A DNA stretch of 5,069 nucleotides from a virus. Taxonomy: Duplodnaviria; Heunggongvirae; Uroviricota; Caudoviricetes. The stretch lies in the IMG/VR virus record IMGVR_UViG_2751185971_000010; one strand, given 5' to 3'. Under the pieces are notes generated by a model. It was not told the DNA's origin, ran no database searches, and saw only the letters and a list, made by a program, of their open reading frames with translations. The translations under genes were made by a program, and so were the position numbers. Shown here piece after piece: positions 1 to 5,069 of this stretch (positions are counted from its first letter, which is position 1; every line of letters begins with the position of its first letter).

Positions 1-90
1 AAGGAGATCAGTGAAGGTAATTTAAAAACGGTTCTGTGAAAGTGACACGAACCGATCTCCATCGATGTTACTCACCGATCTCCTTCACGG
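1..90. repeat. Cluster of short GATC-containing repeats: 10-bp direct repeat ACCGATCTCC (51-60 and 74-83) plus inverted partial copy AAGGAGATC (1-9)
   Basis: Read directly: ACCGATCTCC occurs twice 23 bp apart; positions 1-9 AAGGAGATC are the reverse complement of GATCTCCTT at 77-85. Three GATC (Dam) sites lie at 6-9, 54-57 and 77-80. The cluster sits at the point where lom homology is lost and is cut by the window edge. Confidence 0.4.
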
Positions 91-167
91 TAATACGCAC
101 ATGCAGGCGCACCGGATACAGCCAGACAGATGGCTGCGGACAAAATGGCTGCACAAACTTTACGCAT
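72..167 (-). pseudogene. lom: lom (Ail/PagC/Lom family outer-membrane protein) 5' remnant: signal peptide retained, then unrelated sequence and a stop after 31 codons
   Basis: Minus strand: RBS GAGAGG, 5-nt spacer, ATG at 165-167. Translation is MRKVCAAILSAAICLAVSGAPA followed by CAYYREGDR and TGA at 72-74. The first 22 residues match the lambda Lom signal peptide as I recall it (MRKLYAAILSAAICLAVSGAPA…). No other minus frame restores Lom-like sequence, so the gene is truncated or replaced from about position 101 leftwards. Position after J and its terminator is the lambda lom position. Confidence 0.55.
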
Positions 168-234: not shown

Positions 235-3200
235 TCAGCTAATCGTGATGCCTGCAGTGGCTTTCTTCATCACAACAACCAGCAAATCGCTGATACTTGC
301 TGTGGGATACCAGCCATTTACCAGCCATGCCGATACAGAAAACTCCAGCGTCATGTGACCGTGACCGGCAGGCATATCAATAACACCCGTATATATCAGC
401 GTATTATCCAGGGTCGTTCGGTTATAAATTTCAGCACCGTTTTTCTTCACTATCAGGCGGCATGACGAATAAATATTGTTATTCTTCCGCTCATGTTTAG
501 CACCGCGAAACGCCACCGCGGGAATAACAATTTGCCGATCAAACGGCTGATCGTCATAAACCCTGACGGTAATGGTCCCTGATGGCCACCTCTCCGGTGC
601 CCGGGAGTCCCGTGGGAAAGGTTTGCCCACTGTTTTAACGAGATCGCCTTCAATCTGGTTCGCGGACAATTTTCCCAGAACCCGACAGTTCTTATTAATC
701 GTGACGTTGTTGAGCGTCCCGGAGTTCGCGTTCACGTTACCGCTGATATCGGCATTTTTCGCCGTCAGCCGTCCGCCAGGTGTCAGGGAAAATGCCGGAG
801 GATTACCGCCGCTGGTTATGGTCGGAGCCGTCAGGCGTTTCAGGAACACGTCGTTCATGAATATCTGATCGCCCTGACCAACAAACATCGGCTTTGTGTT
901 GCCATTCGCAGGATTAATCATCGCAATCCTGTCTGCCGCCAGCAGCACCTGACTCTGCATTCCTGCTGGCGTATTCTCAATACCGGCACCGATACCCGCA
1001 ATATAAAGGCGTCCGTCCTTCATCTGTTGCAGCTTCACAGCCCACATGCTGTTCAGATTATTATTTGTATCAACCTGAACCTTCTGTATCTGCTGGATTG
1101 CCGCACTCTGGTCTTTCAGTTTCTTATTGACAGTCTGCGTGATTTCATTGCTGACATCCGTAATGGACGTCCTGATTTCAGCCAGGTCAGGCGCAAGCTG
1201 ACCTTTATCAATCTGCGTCCACAGCTCCTGAGCCAGATGGGTTTTCCCTATCTCGCCTTTGAAAAAATCCAGATAACCGGATGCATCATCACTCGGCTGA
1301 CCAACAGCCTCCACGAATGCCGATTTGCCAACGGTGTTCACACTGCGAACGTAAAAATAATAATCATGGCCCGGTTTGATATTGATACTGGCGGCTATCC
1401 AGTACAGCCCCGTGCCAAGATAGCGCGCTGTGGTTTCAACCTTCCTGATATCGGTAATCCGCTTTTCCGAAAACCAGAACTCAAACTGTACCGTCGGGTC
1501 ATAAACGGCAAGATGCGGCGTGGCGGTTATCTGAAAATAGCCCGGCGTCAGCTCAATCCGCGACGGCGCTGCCGGTGCGGCAATCCGGAACGATACCGAC
1601 GCCGGATCGCCCTGCTGTCCCCACGCATTTACCGCCCGGACCGTCAACATGTAACGCCCCAGCGCCAGCTGCCTGAAGCGGTATGTGGTTTCCGTCGTCC
1701 GGGCCGTGCTGACCAGCCGCTCACTGCCATCGTCCGCTGTCACGGTCAGGCGAAGCAGGAAGCTCACGCCCTTCACCACCTTCGGCGTGTCCCAGCGGGC
1801 CAGTACCTGATACTCCCCGCTGTCTGCGGTGACTTCGGCAGTCAGGTGCTGCACCGCTGGCGGCGTGACACCATTCACCGTGCCGCTCTGGTCGCCGTCA
1901 AAGTGCGCCCCGTTATCCACGATGGCTTCTTTTTCCGGTACATGCTGCACGGCGGTGATGGCATACGTGCCGTCATCGTTCTCACGGATACTCACGCAGC
2001 GGAACAGGCGCTGGCGCAGCGTCGGCAGCTTCAGCCCCCACACGCTGTATTCGGCAACGCCGTCAGGAACACGGCTCACTTTCACCTTCACGCCGTCGGT
2101 GACGGACTGGACCTCCACGCTGACCGGATTCCCCTGTCCGTCAACCAGGCTTATCAGCGTGGTGCCGGAGGATGGCAGCGTGATTTCACGGTCGAGCGTC
2201 AGTGTCCGCGTCTGGCTGTTCACCGCCAGCACGCGCCCGCCGATGCTGATACCCGCATAGTCATCATCACAGATTTCAATGACATCGCCCGGTACATGGC
2301 GAAGCCCTTCTGCACCCACGCTGAAGTCCACGGTCTGCGTTTCCAGCAGCTCCGTTTTAATCAGCCACAGCCCGGCGCGGTGTGCCTGCCCCCGGCTGGT
2401 ACAGCCAAAGGCATCCATCTTCGTGACGTTACGACCGTAACGGGCAATGGCCTGCGTATCTTCAACAAGCTCTGTCGCCGTCTCCCAGCCGTTATCCGGG
2501 TCAATCCAGTTCACCTCAACGGCATTATGGCGGTCCTTCAGGGCGCTGAAGCTGTAGCGGAACGGCGCGCCATCATCCGGCATCACCACATTACTGCGGT
2601 TATAGGTCCACACCTTATCCGACGGTCGGTCCTGCACGAACGTCAGCGTCTGCCCGTTCCATACCGGCATATAGCGCATCGCCGAACAGAAATCACTGAG
2701 CACATCCCACGCCTTACGCTGTGTGGTCAGGTAAGCGTTACAGGTGATGCGCGGCTCCGTGCCACCAAAGCCATCCGGCACTGACTGATCGCAATACTGG
2801 CCGATGACATACAGCGCCCATTTGTCCACATCCGCCGCACCAAGACGTTTCCCCATGCCGTAGCGCGGGTGGGTCAGCATATCCCACAGACACCATGCCA
2901 TGTTGTTGCTGTATGCCGGTTTAAACGTCCCGTCCCAGATACCGCTGTATTGCCGCGTCTGCGGGTTATAGTTCGATGGCACCTGCAGAATGCGCCCGCG
3001 AAGATGATAATTACGGCTCACCTGCTGGCTGCCGAACTGTTCCGAGTCCACCTGCACGCCGACCAGTGCCGTGTTCGGGTAGCACTGTTTCACATCGATG
3101 ATTTCAGTGTATGACGACCAGAGCGTTTTGTTCTGCAGCTGGTCTGTGGTGCTGTCCGGCGTCATCCTGCGCATCCGGATATTAAACGGGCGCGGCGGCA

Positions 3201-3714
3201 GGTTACCCACCACCACCGAGGCCAGATACTGCGAGGTGGTTTTGCCCTTAATGGTGATGTCTTTTTCCGTCACCCAGCCACCGTTACGTTGTATCTGAAC
3301 CAGCAGGCGGACTTCCGACGGATTCCTGTCACCCTTTGAGGTGGTTTCCACCAGTGCCTGCACACCGAAGGTAAAGCGCAGACGGTCGATGTTTGCAGAC
3401 GTGATGGTCCGGGTGATCGGCGTGTCGTATTTCACTTCCGTACCCAGCACCGTCTCGGAACCGGAGGATTCAAATCCCTCCGGCGGTGTCTGCTCCTGCT
3501 CACCTGCCCGGAACACCACCGTAACACCGGAGATGTTGGTATTCCCCTCACTGTCCAGCACCGGTGTACTGTTCAGCAGCACGCTTTTTAATCCATCCAC
3601 CGGACCTTCAATCGGCCCTTCGCTGATGGCATCGATCACACTCAGTAATTGCGTGGATTTCAGGTTGTCCTTCGCTTCGCGCGGGGTATGCCCCTTACTG
3701 CTTCCTTTACCCAT
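235..3714 (-). CDS. J: Host specificity protein J (tail tip / central tail fibre, 1159 aa) with a divergent C-terminal receptor-binding region
   Basis: Single 3480-nt minus-strand ORF with an SD-like GGAG/GAGGA before the ATG. Residues 1 to ~790 ([54 protein letters not shown]…) are near-identical to lambda gpJ as I recall it. From ~790 the sequence diverges (different coiled segment, ~27 extra residues, recognisable but substituted C-terminal domain). Lambda gpJ is 1132 aa by my recollection. Confidence 0.95.
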
Positions 3715-3726
3715 TCCTCACACTCC

Positions 3727-3756
3727 ATAAACAACAAAGCCGCCCAAAAGGCGGCT
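3727..3756 (-). terminator. Intrinsic-terminator-like hairpin between the lipoprotein gene and J
   Basis: Perfect 7-bp GC-rich stem AGCCGCC (3738-3744) / GGCGGCT (3750-3756) with a 5-nt loop. On the minus strand it is followed directly by TTGTTGTTTAT, then the J ribosome-binding site (GGAGTGTGAGGA) and ATG. The plus strand has no T-tract after the stem, so it is directional for minus-strand transcripts. Confidence 0.5.
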
Positions 3757-3780
3757 CATGAGTTACGGCAGGATTAACTA

Positions 3781-4119
3781 TTATTTACATGCATTAACAC
3801 TATCAGCAAAAATTTTTGGCGTTAATGCTGGTACACGTTCATAAAGAGTAAAACTACTGCCATTTCCTGCTTTTTTGATATCAAGCACAATATCATATCC
3901 CCCCATAGCCTGTGGAACTAAAAGGCTTACCCCATTCTCAATAGGAAGGGATGTTATAGGTGTTCCATTACCAGCCCATTGTCTGGATATGCAGCCTGAC
4001 AATTCATCAATATTTTTTAATGAATTACCTTCCATTACAGGTTTTCCGGATTTTACGTAATCCAAAGATTTACATCCTGTTAAGGCAATAATCGTGCAGA
4101 ATAAAATCGTTTTGTTCAT
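3781..4119 (-). CDS. Small predicted outer-membrane lipoprotein (112 aa precursor), a moron inserted between tail genes I and J; function unknown
   Basis: Minus-strand ORF. Using the ATG at 4117-4119, the N-terminus MNKTILFCTIIALTGC is a typical lipoprotein signal peptide: positive n-region, hydrophobic core, lipobox L-T-G-C. The +2 residue after the lipid Cys is Lys, not Asp, consistent with outer-membrane sorting. Two further Cys (SGCISRQ and NACK at the C-terminus) could form a disulfide. The gene sits in a ~420 bp block much more AT-rich than the flanking tail genes. The ORF track opens at an upstream TTG (4129-4131); I prefer the ATG. No convincing Shine-Dalgarno was seen. Confidence 0.65.
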   Translation of the reverse strand: MNKTILFCTIIALTGCKSLDYVKSGKPVMEGNSLKNIDELSGCISRQWAGNGTPITSLPIENGVSLLVPQAMGGYDIVLDIKKAGNGSSFTLYERVPALTPKIFADSVNACK

Positions 4120-4154
4120 ATAGCTAACCAATAGAATAATTATCAGTGTTCGAT

Positions 4155-4190
4155 ATAAATATTAAATCAGTTAGAACATGAGTAAATAAT
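4155..4190 (-). promoter_or_regulatory. Putative sigma70-type promoter for the inserted lipoprotein gene (weak match)
   Basis: AT-rich sequence just downstream of the I stop on the minus strand. Candidate -35 TTTACT (plus coords 4181-4186), 16-nt spacer, candidate -10 TAATAT (4159-4164), about 40 nt upstream of the lipoprotein ATG. Hexamers match consensus only 4/6 each; a guess by eye. Confidence 0.2.
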
Positions 4191-4191
4191 A

Positions 4192-4833
4192 TTACCGCCC
4201 AATTACCACAACCTGACCACCATCCCCTTCATCTGCCGTGCTGATCTCCTGAGATGCCACACGTGACCCCACGCGCATTTCACCGTACAGAACAGGCAGG
4301 ACATTGCCCTGGGCAACCATGTTATCCAGTGAGGAGAAACAGGTGTTCTGTTTGCCGTTATCCGTTGTCTGTGTACGGGGAGTTCTGGCTTTCGGTGCCA
4401 GCATCTGTGCAACACCGCCAAGCGTCATACTGGCACCGAGAGAAAACAGCAGATTACTCGCCATAATTCCTACCCCCGGCATCCATATAGCAACCGCCAT
4501 AACAGCTGCCCCCAGCACCGCCTGAAACACACCGCCACTTTTAGCTCCCACCAGACGCGGTACGATGTGGATCACGGCACCATTTGCCAGCGGCTCATTA
4601 AGACGGGCAGATAATTCGTTTTCGCCTGCATCACGCCCGGCAATGCGCACCTGATACCAGCCCTCATTCAGTTTCTGGCGAAACGCCGGGAGCTGTGTGG
4701 CCAGCGCCCGGATGGCTTCGGCCCCCGTTTTCACACGAAGGTCGATGCGGCGACCAAATCGTTGTAAATCCCCGTAAAGGCAGATGCGTGCCATGCCTGG
4801 TGACGCCAGAGGGAGTGTGTGCGTCGCTGCCAT
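4192..4833 (-). CDS. I: Tail assembly protein I (213 aa)
   Basis: Complete minus-strand ORF. The N-terminal ~55 residues (MAATHTLPLASPGMARICLYGDLQRFGRRIDLRVKTGAEAIRALATQLPAFRQKL…) and the C-terminal ~60 residues (…APKARTPRTQTTDNGKQNT.FSSLDNMVAQGNVLPVLYGEMRVGSRVASQEISTADEGDGGQVVVIGR) match lambda gpI as I recall it; the central hydrophobic segment differs. Position between K and J fits lambda gene order. Confidence 0.9.
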   Translation of the reverse strand: MAATHTLPLASPGMARICLYGDLQRFGRRIDLRVKTGAEAIRALATQLPAFRQKLNEGWYQVRIAGRDAGENELSARLNEPLANGAVIHIVPRLVGAKSGGVFQAVLGAAVMAVAIWMPGVGIMASNLLFSLGASMTLGGVAQMLAPKARTPRTQTTDNGKQNTCFSSLDNMVAQGNVLPVLYGEMRVGSRVASQEISTADEGDGGQVVVIGR

Positions 4834-5069
4834 TTGTCGGTGTACCTCTCTCGTTTGCTCAGTTGTTCAGGAATATGGTGCAGCAGCTCGCCGTCACCAC
4901 AGTAAATGGCGGCATGATTCGGCACCGATGAACCAAAACAGCACAGCAGCACATCGCCCGGCTGCGCCGCTGACAACGGCACCTGATACAGCCCTGTGGC
5001 CTCCAGATTATCCAGATAGAGATTCTGACCGTGACGCCACCAGTCATCCCCGCGATGAAAATCCGGCAT
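4731..5069 (-). CDS. K: Tail assembly protein K, C-terminal 112 codons only (NlpC/P60-like portion); 5' end lies beyond the window edge
   Basis: Minus-strand ORF open to the window edge. Translation (…PDFHRGDDWWRHGQNLYLDNLEATGLYQVPLSAAQPGDVLLCCFGSSVPNHAAIYCGDGELLHHIPEQLSKRERYTDKWQRRTH…) matches my recollection of the lambda gpK C-terminus almost residue for residue. It ends 103 bp inside the start of I in another frame, the same overlap I recall for lambda K/I. The Met at 5067-5069 is an artefact of the window edge, not the true start. Confidence 0.88.
   Translation of the reverse strand: MPDFHRGDDWWRHGQNLYLDNLEATGLYQVPLSAAQPGDVLLCCFGSSVPNHAAIYCGDGELLHHIPEQLSKRERYTDKWQRRTHSLWRHQAWHASAFTGIYNDLVAASTFV

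Follow-up and report, generated by a model that had tools for sequence, protein, structure and literature searches.

Morons, a concept whose definition is said to come from Juhala and Hendrix, provide temperate phages with their principal means of altering the phenotype of the host, and most of them are uncharacterised. Here, we analyze a moron-type cassette that is inserted between the tail genes I and J in a 5,069-nucleotide stretch of viral DNA (Caudoviricetes; IMG/VR record IMGVR_UViG_2751185971_000010; the whole stretch is hereafter called the window) and that encodes a predicted lipoprotein. A described moron of a tail operon is gene 15 of phage HK97: its product, gp15, is an inner-membrane protein that blocks the entry of superinfecting phages while leaving the receptor unblocked, depends on tail features, and has its own promoter and terminator, with demonstrated expression in the prophage (PMC3594210). 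Exclusion lipoproteins are also encoded within phage structural clusters; among these, Lpp021 and Lpp010 of the mEp phages are matched to users of OmpA and LamB and are encoded beside J (PMC11893012), and Llp of phage T5 acts on FhuA (10.64898/2026.03.26.714494). The product of gene I itself, gpI, forms a trimeric plug in the lumen of the virion tail tip and possesses hydrophobic helices that have been proposed to enter the outer membrane of the host on opening of the tube (PMC11101478, PMC12617516).

The locus in the window resembles that of HK97 gene 15 in that extra DNA of deviant GC content lies between syntenic tail genes and encodes a single small envelope-targeted protein; furthermore, two members of the same protein family (in loci L067 and L083) occupy the very slot of gene 15, between the chaperone and tape-measure genes. 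Unlike gp15, the product is a predicted lipoprotein rather than an inner-membrane protein, and the two sequences are unrelated; in contrast to the promoter and terminator of gene 15, the promoter here is a candidate only and the hairpin is punctuation shared by the operon. With T5 Llp, Cor of phages phi80, N15 and T1, Lpp021 and Lpp010, the window protein shares its small size, its predicted lipoprotein nature with outer-membrane-type sorting, and its location in a structural and host-recognition cluster. Unlike these proteins, which are encoded downstream of J, it is encoded beside I, and the predicted mature protein is larger (97 amino acids (aa)).

The region is a horizontally acquired, moron-type accessory cassette encoding a conserved, selected prolipoprotein. 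Comparison with related phages shows extra DNA between conserved, syntenic genes: the I-J gap spans 477 bp in the window (3715–4191; coordinates are positions in the window unless a locus is named, and all genes of the window are on the minus strand) versus 60 bp in lambda (15445–15504) and in most prophages of E. coli, matching the values of ~477 bp and about 60 bp (for lambda) in a first-pass annotation made from the sequence alone. That annotation placed about 420 bp of additional DNA at 3761–4191, close to what sequence comparison gives, namely, an indel of exactly 417 bp (the junction query spans 901 bp in the window and 484 bp at typical Escherichia coli junctions). In an alignment of the window with lambda and with the empty sites of two E. 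coli strains (an O157:H7 strain and strain U1), window-specific DNA is confined to about 3761–4190; homology extends through the stop codon of I, which bounds the insert on the left (upstream), and restarts at a conserved hairpin, which bounds it on the right (downstream). The insertion is a presence/absence polymorphism: among 5,426 complete E. coli genomes searched, the flanks are present in 4,297, and 334 of these contain the full stretch, so that the cassette occurs in about 6% of complete genomes whereas some 92% of the junction-bearing ones lack it. At the DNA level, no match to the cassette was found among 50,697 phage records; together with the empty E. coli junctions, this contradicts the possibility, raised by the same annotation, that most lambdoid phages carry homologous sequence at this position.

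Another line of evidence comes from nucleotide composition. The insert was described as richer in AT than its surroundings, and it is, with 34.0% GC overall and 36% in the open reading frame (ORF), compared to 57% in I and 56% in J; the GC content at third codon positions (GC3) is 23.9% in the ORF and 56–67% in the flanks, so that codon composition differs as well. In a sliding scan, the 432-nt segment with the lowest GC content in the entire sequence begins at 3763, and the relatives of the lipoprotein gene are AT-shifted in all contexts. Across 42 loci in which all segments are present, identity to the window is 98.9% for the cassette, 92.2% for the K-I flank and 95.8% for the N-terminal part of J. 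The cassette is thus more conserved than its flanks, indicating that recombination has carried one recently acquired allele into lambda-like prophages of E. coli with diverged backgrounds, which upholds the earlier proposal of horizontal acquisition. Locus L074, considered as an independent, diverged I-J copy, proved to be the same allele in an error-rich assembly.

As anticipated, the cassette carries one small gene in the orientation of the tail genes (Table 1); two ORFs on the plus strand (3875–4060 and 3960–4091) are unsupported. The predicted product begins with a signal peptide, MNKTILFCTIIALTG, that consists of a positively charged n-region, a hydrophobic core and the lipobox LTGC, in agreement with the pattern [LVI][ASTVI][GAS]C. 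The lipobox cysteine, Cys16, is encoded by codon 4072–4074, and the mature protein is predicted to start with Cys-Lys-Ser. Under the +2 rule established for lipoprotein sorting, lysine at this position does not cause retention in the inner membrane; the residue is not Asp, and sorting to the outer membrane is therefore predicted. The protein matches the PHROGs v4 family phrog_914 over its full length (E 2.5e-32, residues 1–112 versus profile positions 1–118 of 118), a family annotated with unknown function and lacking a Pfam domain. Searches of Pfam, NCBIfam and PADLOC yielded no family match (the sole NCBIfam match is a VirB7 lipoprotein signal peptide, E 0.08), and similarity to sequences in the PDB is confined to the signal peptide. 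A HMMER search of 1.84 billion representatives produced 61 matches, about 45 of which are proteins of 105–120 aa with the same build. In an alignment of 37 family members, Cys16, Cys43 and Cys111 are invariant (the lipobox cysteine in 37/37), and because both Cys43 and Cys111 are invariant, they probably form a disulfide bond. Among 59 near-identical copies of the cassette from viral contigs, 11 synonymous and 6 non-synonymous variants were detected, for a ratio of non-synonymous to synonymous polymorphism (pN/pS) of 0.156, and frameshifts are present in only three copies; the ORF is under purifying selection. In L060 and L061, the frameshift is caused by one-base deletions in a G6 run of the ORF (TATGGGGGGATAT, ~3904–3909), which could reflect sequencing error or a slippage-prone tract.

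Table 1 Coordinates of the features of the window
Feature	Position	Strand	Description or evidence
Inserted cassette	3761–4190	-	Net +417 bp versus standard 60-bp I-J spacer; alignments, GC, identity
Predicted lipoprotein ORF	3781–4119	-	112 aa + stop; phrog_914
Spacer 5' of the ORF	4120–4191	-	72 nt, 22% GC; composition
Non-coding motif ATTTACTCATGTTCTAACTGAT	4166–4187	-	22 nt; local alignment
Hairpin and T-rich tract	3737–3757 (hairpin), 3727–3736 (T-rich tract)	-	9 pairs, folding z = -3.9
Tail gene I	4192–4833	-	213 aa; PF06805 Lambda_tail_I, E 2.4e-23
Tail tip / host-specificity gene J	235–3714	-	1159 aa; six gpJ domains (Pfam/PHROG)
K-like gene, partial	4731–5069	-	NlpC/P60
lom-like gene, 5' part	1–167	-	Begins MRKVCAAILSAAICLAVSGAPA

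The AlphaFold2 (AF2) model of the lipoprotein (predicted local distance difference test (pLDDT) score 86.7) is a small helix-grip alpha/beta domain that resembles Flpp3, a DUF3568 outer-membrane lipoprotein of Francisella, and the N-terminal domain of BamC. The resemblance is at the level of the fold, with 6–12% sequence identity; many unrelated helix-grip proteins (DUF302 and KA1 domains) score comparably to Flpp3 and BamC in the fold comparison, and no match to Pfam DUF3568 was obtained above the threshold.

Examination of the genomic contexts of the relatives shows that the lipoprotein gene adjoins an I-type gene in 9 of the 12 phage contexts. On the strand of the tail genes and directly 5' of I, it is found in L078, L073, L075, L065, L086 and the phages Fraca, LMessi and ST846-OXA48phi9.1; unlike these relatives, the window gene is located directly 3' of I. 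Identity to the window protein is 61% for L073, 53% for L078 (from Kluyvera), 51% for L075 and about 30% for Fraca and LMessi; a narrow-alignment profile search of species-representative genomes detected one carrier, a Kluyvera. The gaps around the relative genes are often minimal: those of L075 measure 32 and 21 bp, and those of the Klebsiella phage ST846-OXA48phi9.1, 31 and 15 bp. Tightly embedded relatives carry Shine-Dalgarno sequences of their own, and in L078, a gap of about 39 bp contains AGGAG. Because gaps of this size are too short for a private promoter, the relatives located there must be co-transcribed with the tail genes, which suggests that late co-transcription is at least a part of the mode of expression and weakens the view of the first-pass annotation that the prophage expresses the gene independently of the late genes. 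A virulent lifestyle of Fraca, which would be incompatible with a role in the prophage, is ruled out by its integrase, excisionase and Q genes.

Among viral proteins, the best match to the window protein comes from Pseudomonas phage phiAH14a and is uncharacterised. In this phage, the ectopic gene pair p33-p32 (L080 5962–6948) lies beside the immunity region, on the strand of the repressor gene. The p33 protein belongs to the phrog_914-type family (hhalign, 98.6%, E 7e-16); its annotated start is truncated, and with the true start, at L080 5962, the lipobox is complete. The p33 gene is followed by a hairpin and then by p32, an intact paralogue of I that is 79% identical to the structural I. The tail module of the same phage contains another pair, p83-p84 (L082 25239–26310), in which p83, an unrelated lipoprotein of 140 aa, is encoded 5' of the structural I, p84.

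The first-pass annotation read the region as a classic moron layout, with a candidate promoter upstream of the gene and a hairpin plus T-tract downstream of it. The extra DNA, the composition and the gene itself stand, whereas the regulatory elements fare worse. For the promoter, a standard sigma-70-like scan returned nothing on the minus strand, and what is left are sub-consensus hexamers. A relaxed scan yielded six such candidates with at least 8 of 12 consensus positions, compared to 1.8 ± 1.75 in shuffles of the spacer (p ~0.04); these include TTAATA (-35, 4160–4165) with GATAAT (-10, 4139–4144), which match at 9/12 positions and are separated by a poor spacer of 15 nt, and TTTACT (-35, 4181–4186) with TAATAT (-10, 4159–4164), an 8/12 match with a 16-nt spacer. 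The latter -35 candidate overlaps the 22-nt motif in Table 1, which is common to the window and the upstream region of L073, the closest relative located between K and I (local alignment, p = 0.002 versus shuffles), so that some non-coding DNA moves together with the lipoprotein gene. In 21 of the 59 cassette copies, a T3/T4 length polymorphism is present at this -35 candidate (~4184–4187), which, again, could be due to sequencing error or slippage.

The hairpin and T-tract exist as described, but they are not the cassette's own terminator. An equivalent hairpin with a T-tract, which differs from that of the window by a compensatory G-C/A-T change, is found in the 60-bp spacer of lambda (L003 1446–1505) and at the E. 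coli junctions that lack the cassette; the differences between the window and lambda concentrate in the 5' arm and loop, and lambda-type sequence returns right after the hairpin. A GC-rich hairpin, a T-tract and a Shine-Dalgarno sequence are present in the I-J gaps of all seven K-I-J modules inspected, which are only distantly related and extend from lambda to phages of soil (lambda, Fraca, LMessi, L073, L065, L086 and a Klebsiella phage). The hairpin is, accordingly, conserved operon punctuation rather than cargo of the cassette, and terminator-like hairpins 5' of J should not be counted as evidence of a moron. An Rfam search with the I-J gap retrieved no family; the hairpin may be involved in read-through when Q acts, shield the 3' ends of mRNAs, or determine the I:J ratio. 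Where the lipoprotein gene is 5' of I, a near-duplicate of the I-J hairpin is found 3' of the lipoprotein gene, as in Fraca, with AAGCCACCTTCGGGTGGCTT and AAGCCACCCCCGGGTGGCTT; it is plausible that the hairpin served as a homologous crossover point through which a unit of lipoprotein gene plus hairpin left the slot between K and I for that between I and J.

The cassette does not covary with the receptor-binding end of J. The C-terminal 135 aa of the window J are 40% identical to those of lambda J, and cassettes of 97–100% identity are found together with at least five J C-terminal types (identities over the last 135 aa among carriers are 100, 92, 62, 41, 21 and 18%). Conversely, the cassette is absent from all 54 phage records that have the C-terminal type of the window J (VT1-Sakai, PPompW and Stx2a phages). 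This uncoupling argues against a masking protein matched to the receptor. The window shares its J C-terminal type with the VT1-Sakai and PPompW prophages. A mosaic breakpoint is located near J residue 833, upstream of which loci are about 95% identical while carrying at least five unrelated C-terminal modules downstream, and the GC content drops from 59% to 50% in the 3' third of J (235–1215).

On these observations, the balance tips slightly towards an explanation that combines a moron-type cassette, an outer-membrane lipoprotein, and exclusion of superinfecting phages after adsorption, at the step mediated by gpI. The signal peptide predicts export by the Sec pathway, lipidation at Cys16 and cleavage by signal peptidase II, which would yield a mature protein of about 97 aa that faces the periplasm from its anchor in the inner leaflet of the outer membrane. 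Read-through transcription of the late tail operon under antitermination by Q would be the most likely mode of expression, given that the gene is on the same strand and that the gaps of several relatives cannot accommodate a private promoter. A low level of prophage expression may also originate in the AT-rich upstream spacer; autonomous expression from the prophage is no more likely than expression with the late operon. With respect to function, we tentatively propose, by analogy, a superinfection-exclusion or anti-ejection factor acting after receptor binding, which is the single most likely function although its probability stays well short of even. The receptor recognized by J would not be masked; the target would be the incoming gpI (and the gpH C-terminus), as it inserts into or crosses the outer membrane, at the periplasmic face. 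A periplasm-facing outer-membrane lipoprotein would reside in the very compartment where the incoming gpI emerges. A stronger proposal, that the phrog_914 lipoproteins are a new class of post-receptor entry blockers that intercept gpI or its complex with the gpH C-terminus within the inner leaflet, so that the DNA conduit would never form, is doubtful at present. Such interception would explain the adjacency to I across phages of Escherichia, Klebsiella, Kluyvera and Pseudomonas and soil phages, the indifference to the receptor-binding type of J, and the pairing of a lipoprotein with an I paralogue beside the immunity region of phiAH14a.

Several observations weigh against exclusion at the gpI step. 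The functional assignment is drawn from position and analogy, and no homology or fold match links the protein to any proven exclusion protein; alignments with Llp, Cor and Lpp010 cover the signal peptide only (17–31 columns). The lipoprotein and I are not co-diverging: relatives that are 51–61% identical to the window protein adjoin I proteins that are just 37–40% identical to that of the window. Adjacency to I may only reflect the permissive K-I and I-J gaps in an otherwise overlapping operon, and the K-lipoprotein-I order could derive from one ancestor, in which case the 9 of 12 contexts are not independent and the adjacency was retained in no more than about three separate events. Three contexts have the gene on the opposite strand and away from I, those in the chaperone/tape-measure slot (L067 and L083) and one between a DUF6950 gene and a J-like gene of 1517 aa. 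Chromosomal orthologues are encoded in Dyella-like bacteria (Xanthomonadales) in a syntenic PpnN-lipoprotein-GspH-UvrB arrangement with phage genes absent nearby (L064, L084, L085 and L087), and the fold may thus have a housekeeping role in the envelope. Finally, the window gene is not preceded by a clear Shine-Dalgarno sequence.

An alternative reading is a lysogenic-conversion factor of the envelope (serum resistance, stress tolerance or adhesion) that, like Bor and Lom of lambda, would be a prophage accessory envelope protein; it would serve the host rather than act on phages and be transcribed from a promoter of its own while the prophage is repressed. The AT-rich insert, its promoter-like hexamers and the conserved upstream motif fit this reading, as do the chromosomal, non-phage orthologues, the occurrence of the cassette in strains of extraintestinal pathogenic (ExPEC) and enteroaggregative (EAEC) E. 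coli, the presence of lom 3' of J in the same prophage, and the resemblance to Flpp3, a virulence determinant of Francisella according to its PDB entry. We nevertheless consider it rather unlikely: the promoter candidates are sub-consensus, most relatives are lodged in tail operons with minimal gaps, and a host-niche factor would not be expected to stay linked to tail-tip genes in phages of Escherichia, Klebsiella, Kluyvera and Pseudomonas as well as in soil phages. The bor gene, moreover, lies close to the genes for lysis and is known for its serum-resistance phenotype, and the window protein matches neither Bor nor Ail/Lom, nor any other Pfam family. Masking of the phage's own J receptor in the manner of Llp, Cor and Lpp010, which would block adsorption and thereby protect the lysogen, spare the progeny from debris, or both, is quite improbable, even though an outer-membrane-type lipoprotein encoded near the host-specificity gene J is what it calls for and precedents exist in Lpp021 and Lpp010 and in the pair of T5 Llp and FhuA. 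The same cassette accompanies at least five J C-terminal types and is missing from all 54 phage records with the J type of the window; beyond the signal peptide, the similarity to Cor and Lpp010 ends, the fold search retrieved no Llp among its matches, and the fold class differs from that of the Llp entry in the PDB. Fraca, for its part, carries both a phrog_914 lipoprotein gene and a cor gene.

A late gene that aids the release of progeny, by conditioning the outer membrane or debris against wasted DNA ejection or by contributing to outer-membrane disruption, would account for the shared strand, for the tight embedding of many relatives in the late operon, and for a hairpin punctuation common to the tail genes. 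Its mechanism overlaps with that of the favored explanation, with the same molecular target and a different timing, and there is no tie to lysis cassettes; the opposite-strand copies and the copy beside the immunity region of phiAH14a argue for non-late expression in some phages, which makes this reading very improbable. Hitch-hiking DNA without function, or an annotation artefact, could be suspected from the label "hypothetical protein", the only annotation, from an out-of-series locus tag (RS30590) and from the frameshifts in three of the 59 copies; this suspicion is effectively refuted by the pN/pS value, the confident structure prediction, and a deep family that has three invariant cysteines and reaches Pseudomonas and Xanthomonadales. 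The Tai tail-assembly-interference systems were also considered and rejected, being located at a different genome position and not consisting of lipoproteins.

With this cassette, a family of lipoproteins is defined whose genes are linked to those of the tail tip in many siphophages; as far as the searched libraries and the literature show, both the family and its association with gene I are undescribed. If the proposed entry block at the gpI step is correct, it would constitute a new exclusion mechanism and provide a handle on the poorly understood penetration of the outer membrane by lambda-like phages, with relevance to the prediction of host range in phage therapy.

The K-I gap, apparently a hot spot of accessory genes, harbors other variable small genes 5' of the lipoprotein gene, encoding DUF6414, DUF4760 and hypothetical proteins (L065 5910–6963; L086 1335–1844; L079 14063–14332; L089 4647–4994). 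Some of the Dyella-like chromosomal orthologues are labelled "YceK" by JGI. Carriers of the cassette include EAEC 042, ExPEC isolates, an O18 strain and an isolate from cerebrospinal fluid. In E. coli 042, the lipoprotein gene (L001 12282–12620) bears the RefSeq tag EC042_RS30590, which is out of series with those of its neighbours, RS07240 and RS07245, suggesting that the gene was overlooked in the original genome annotation. Directly 3' of J, the window contains lom, a classical moron, and an Ail/Lom family protein is annotated at this position in E. coli 042.

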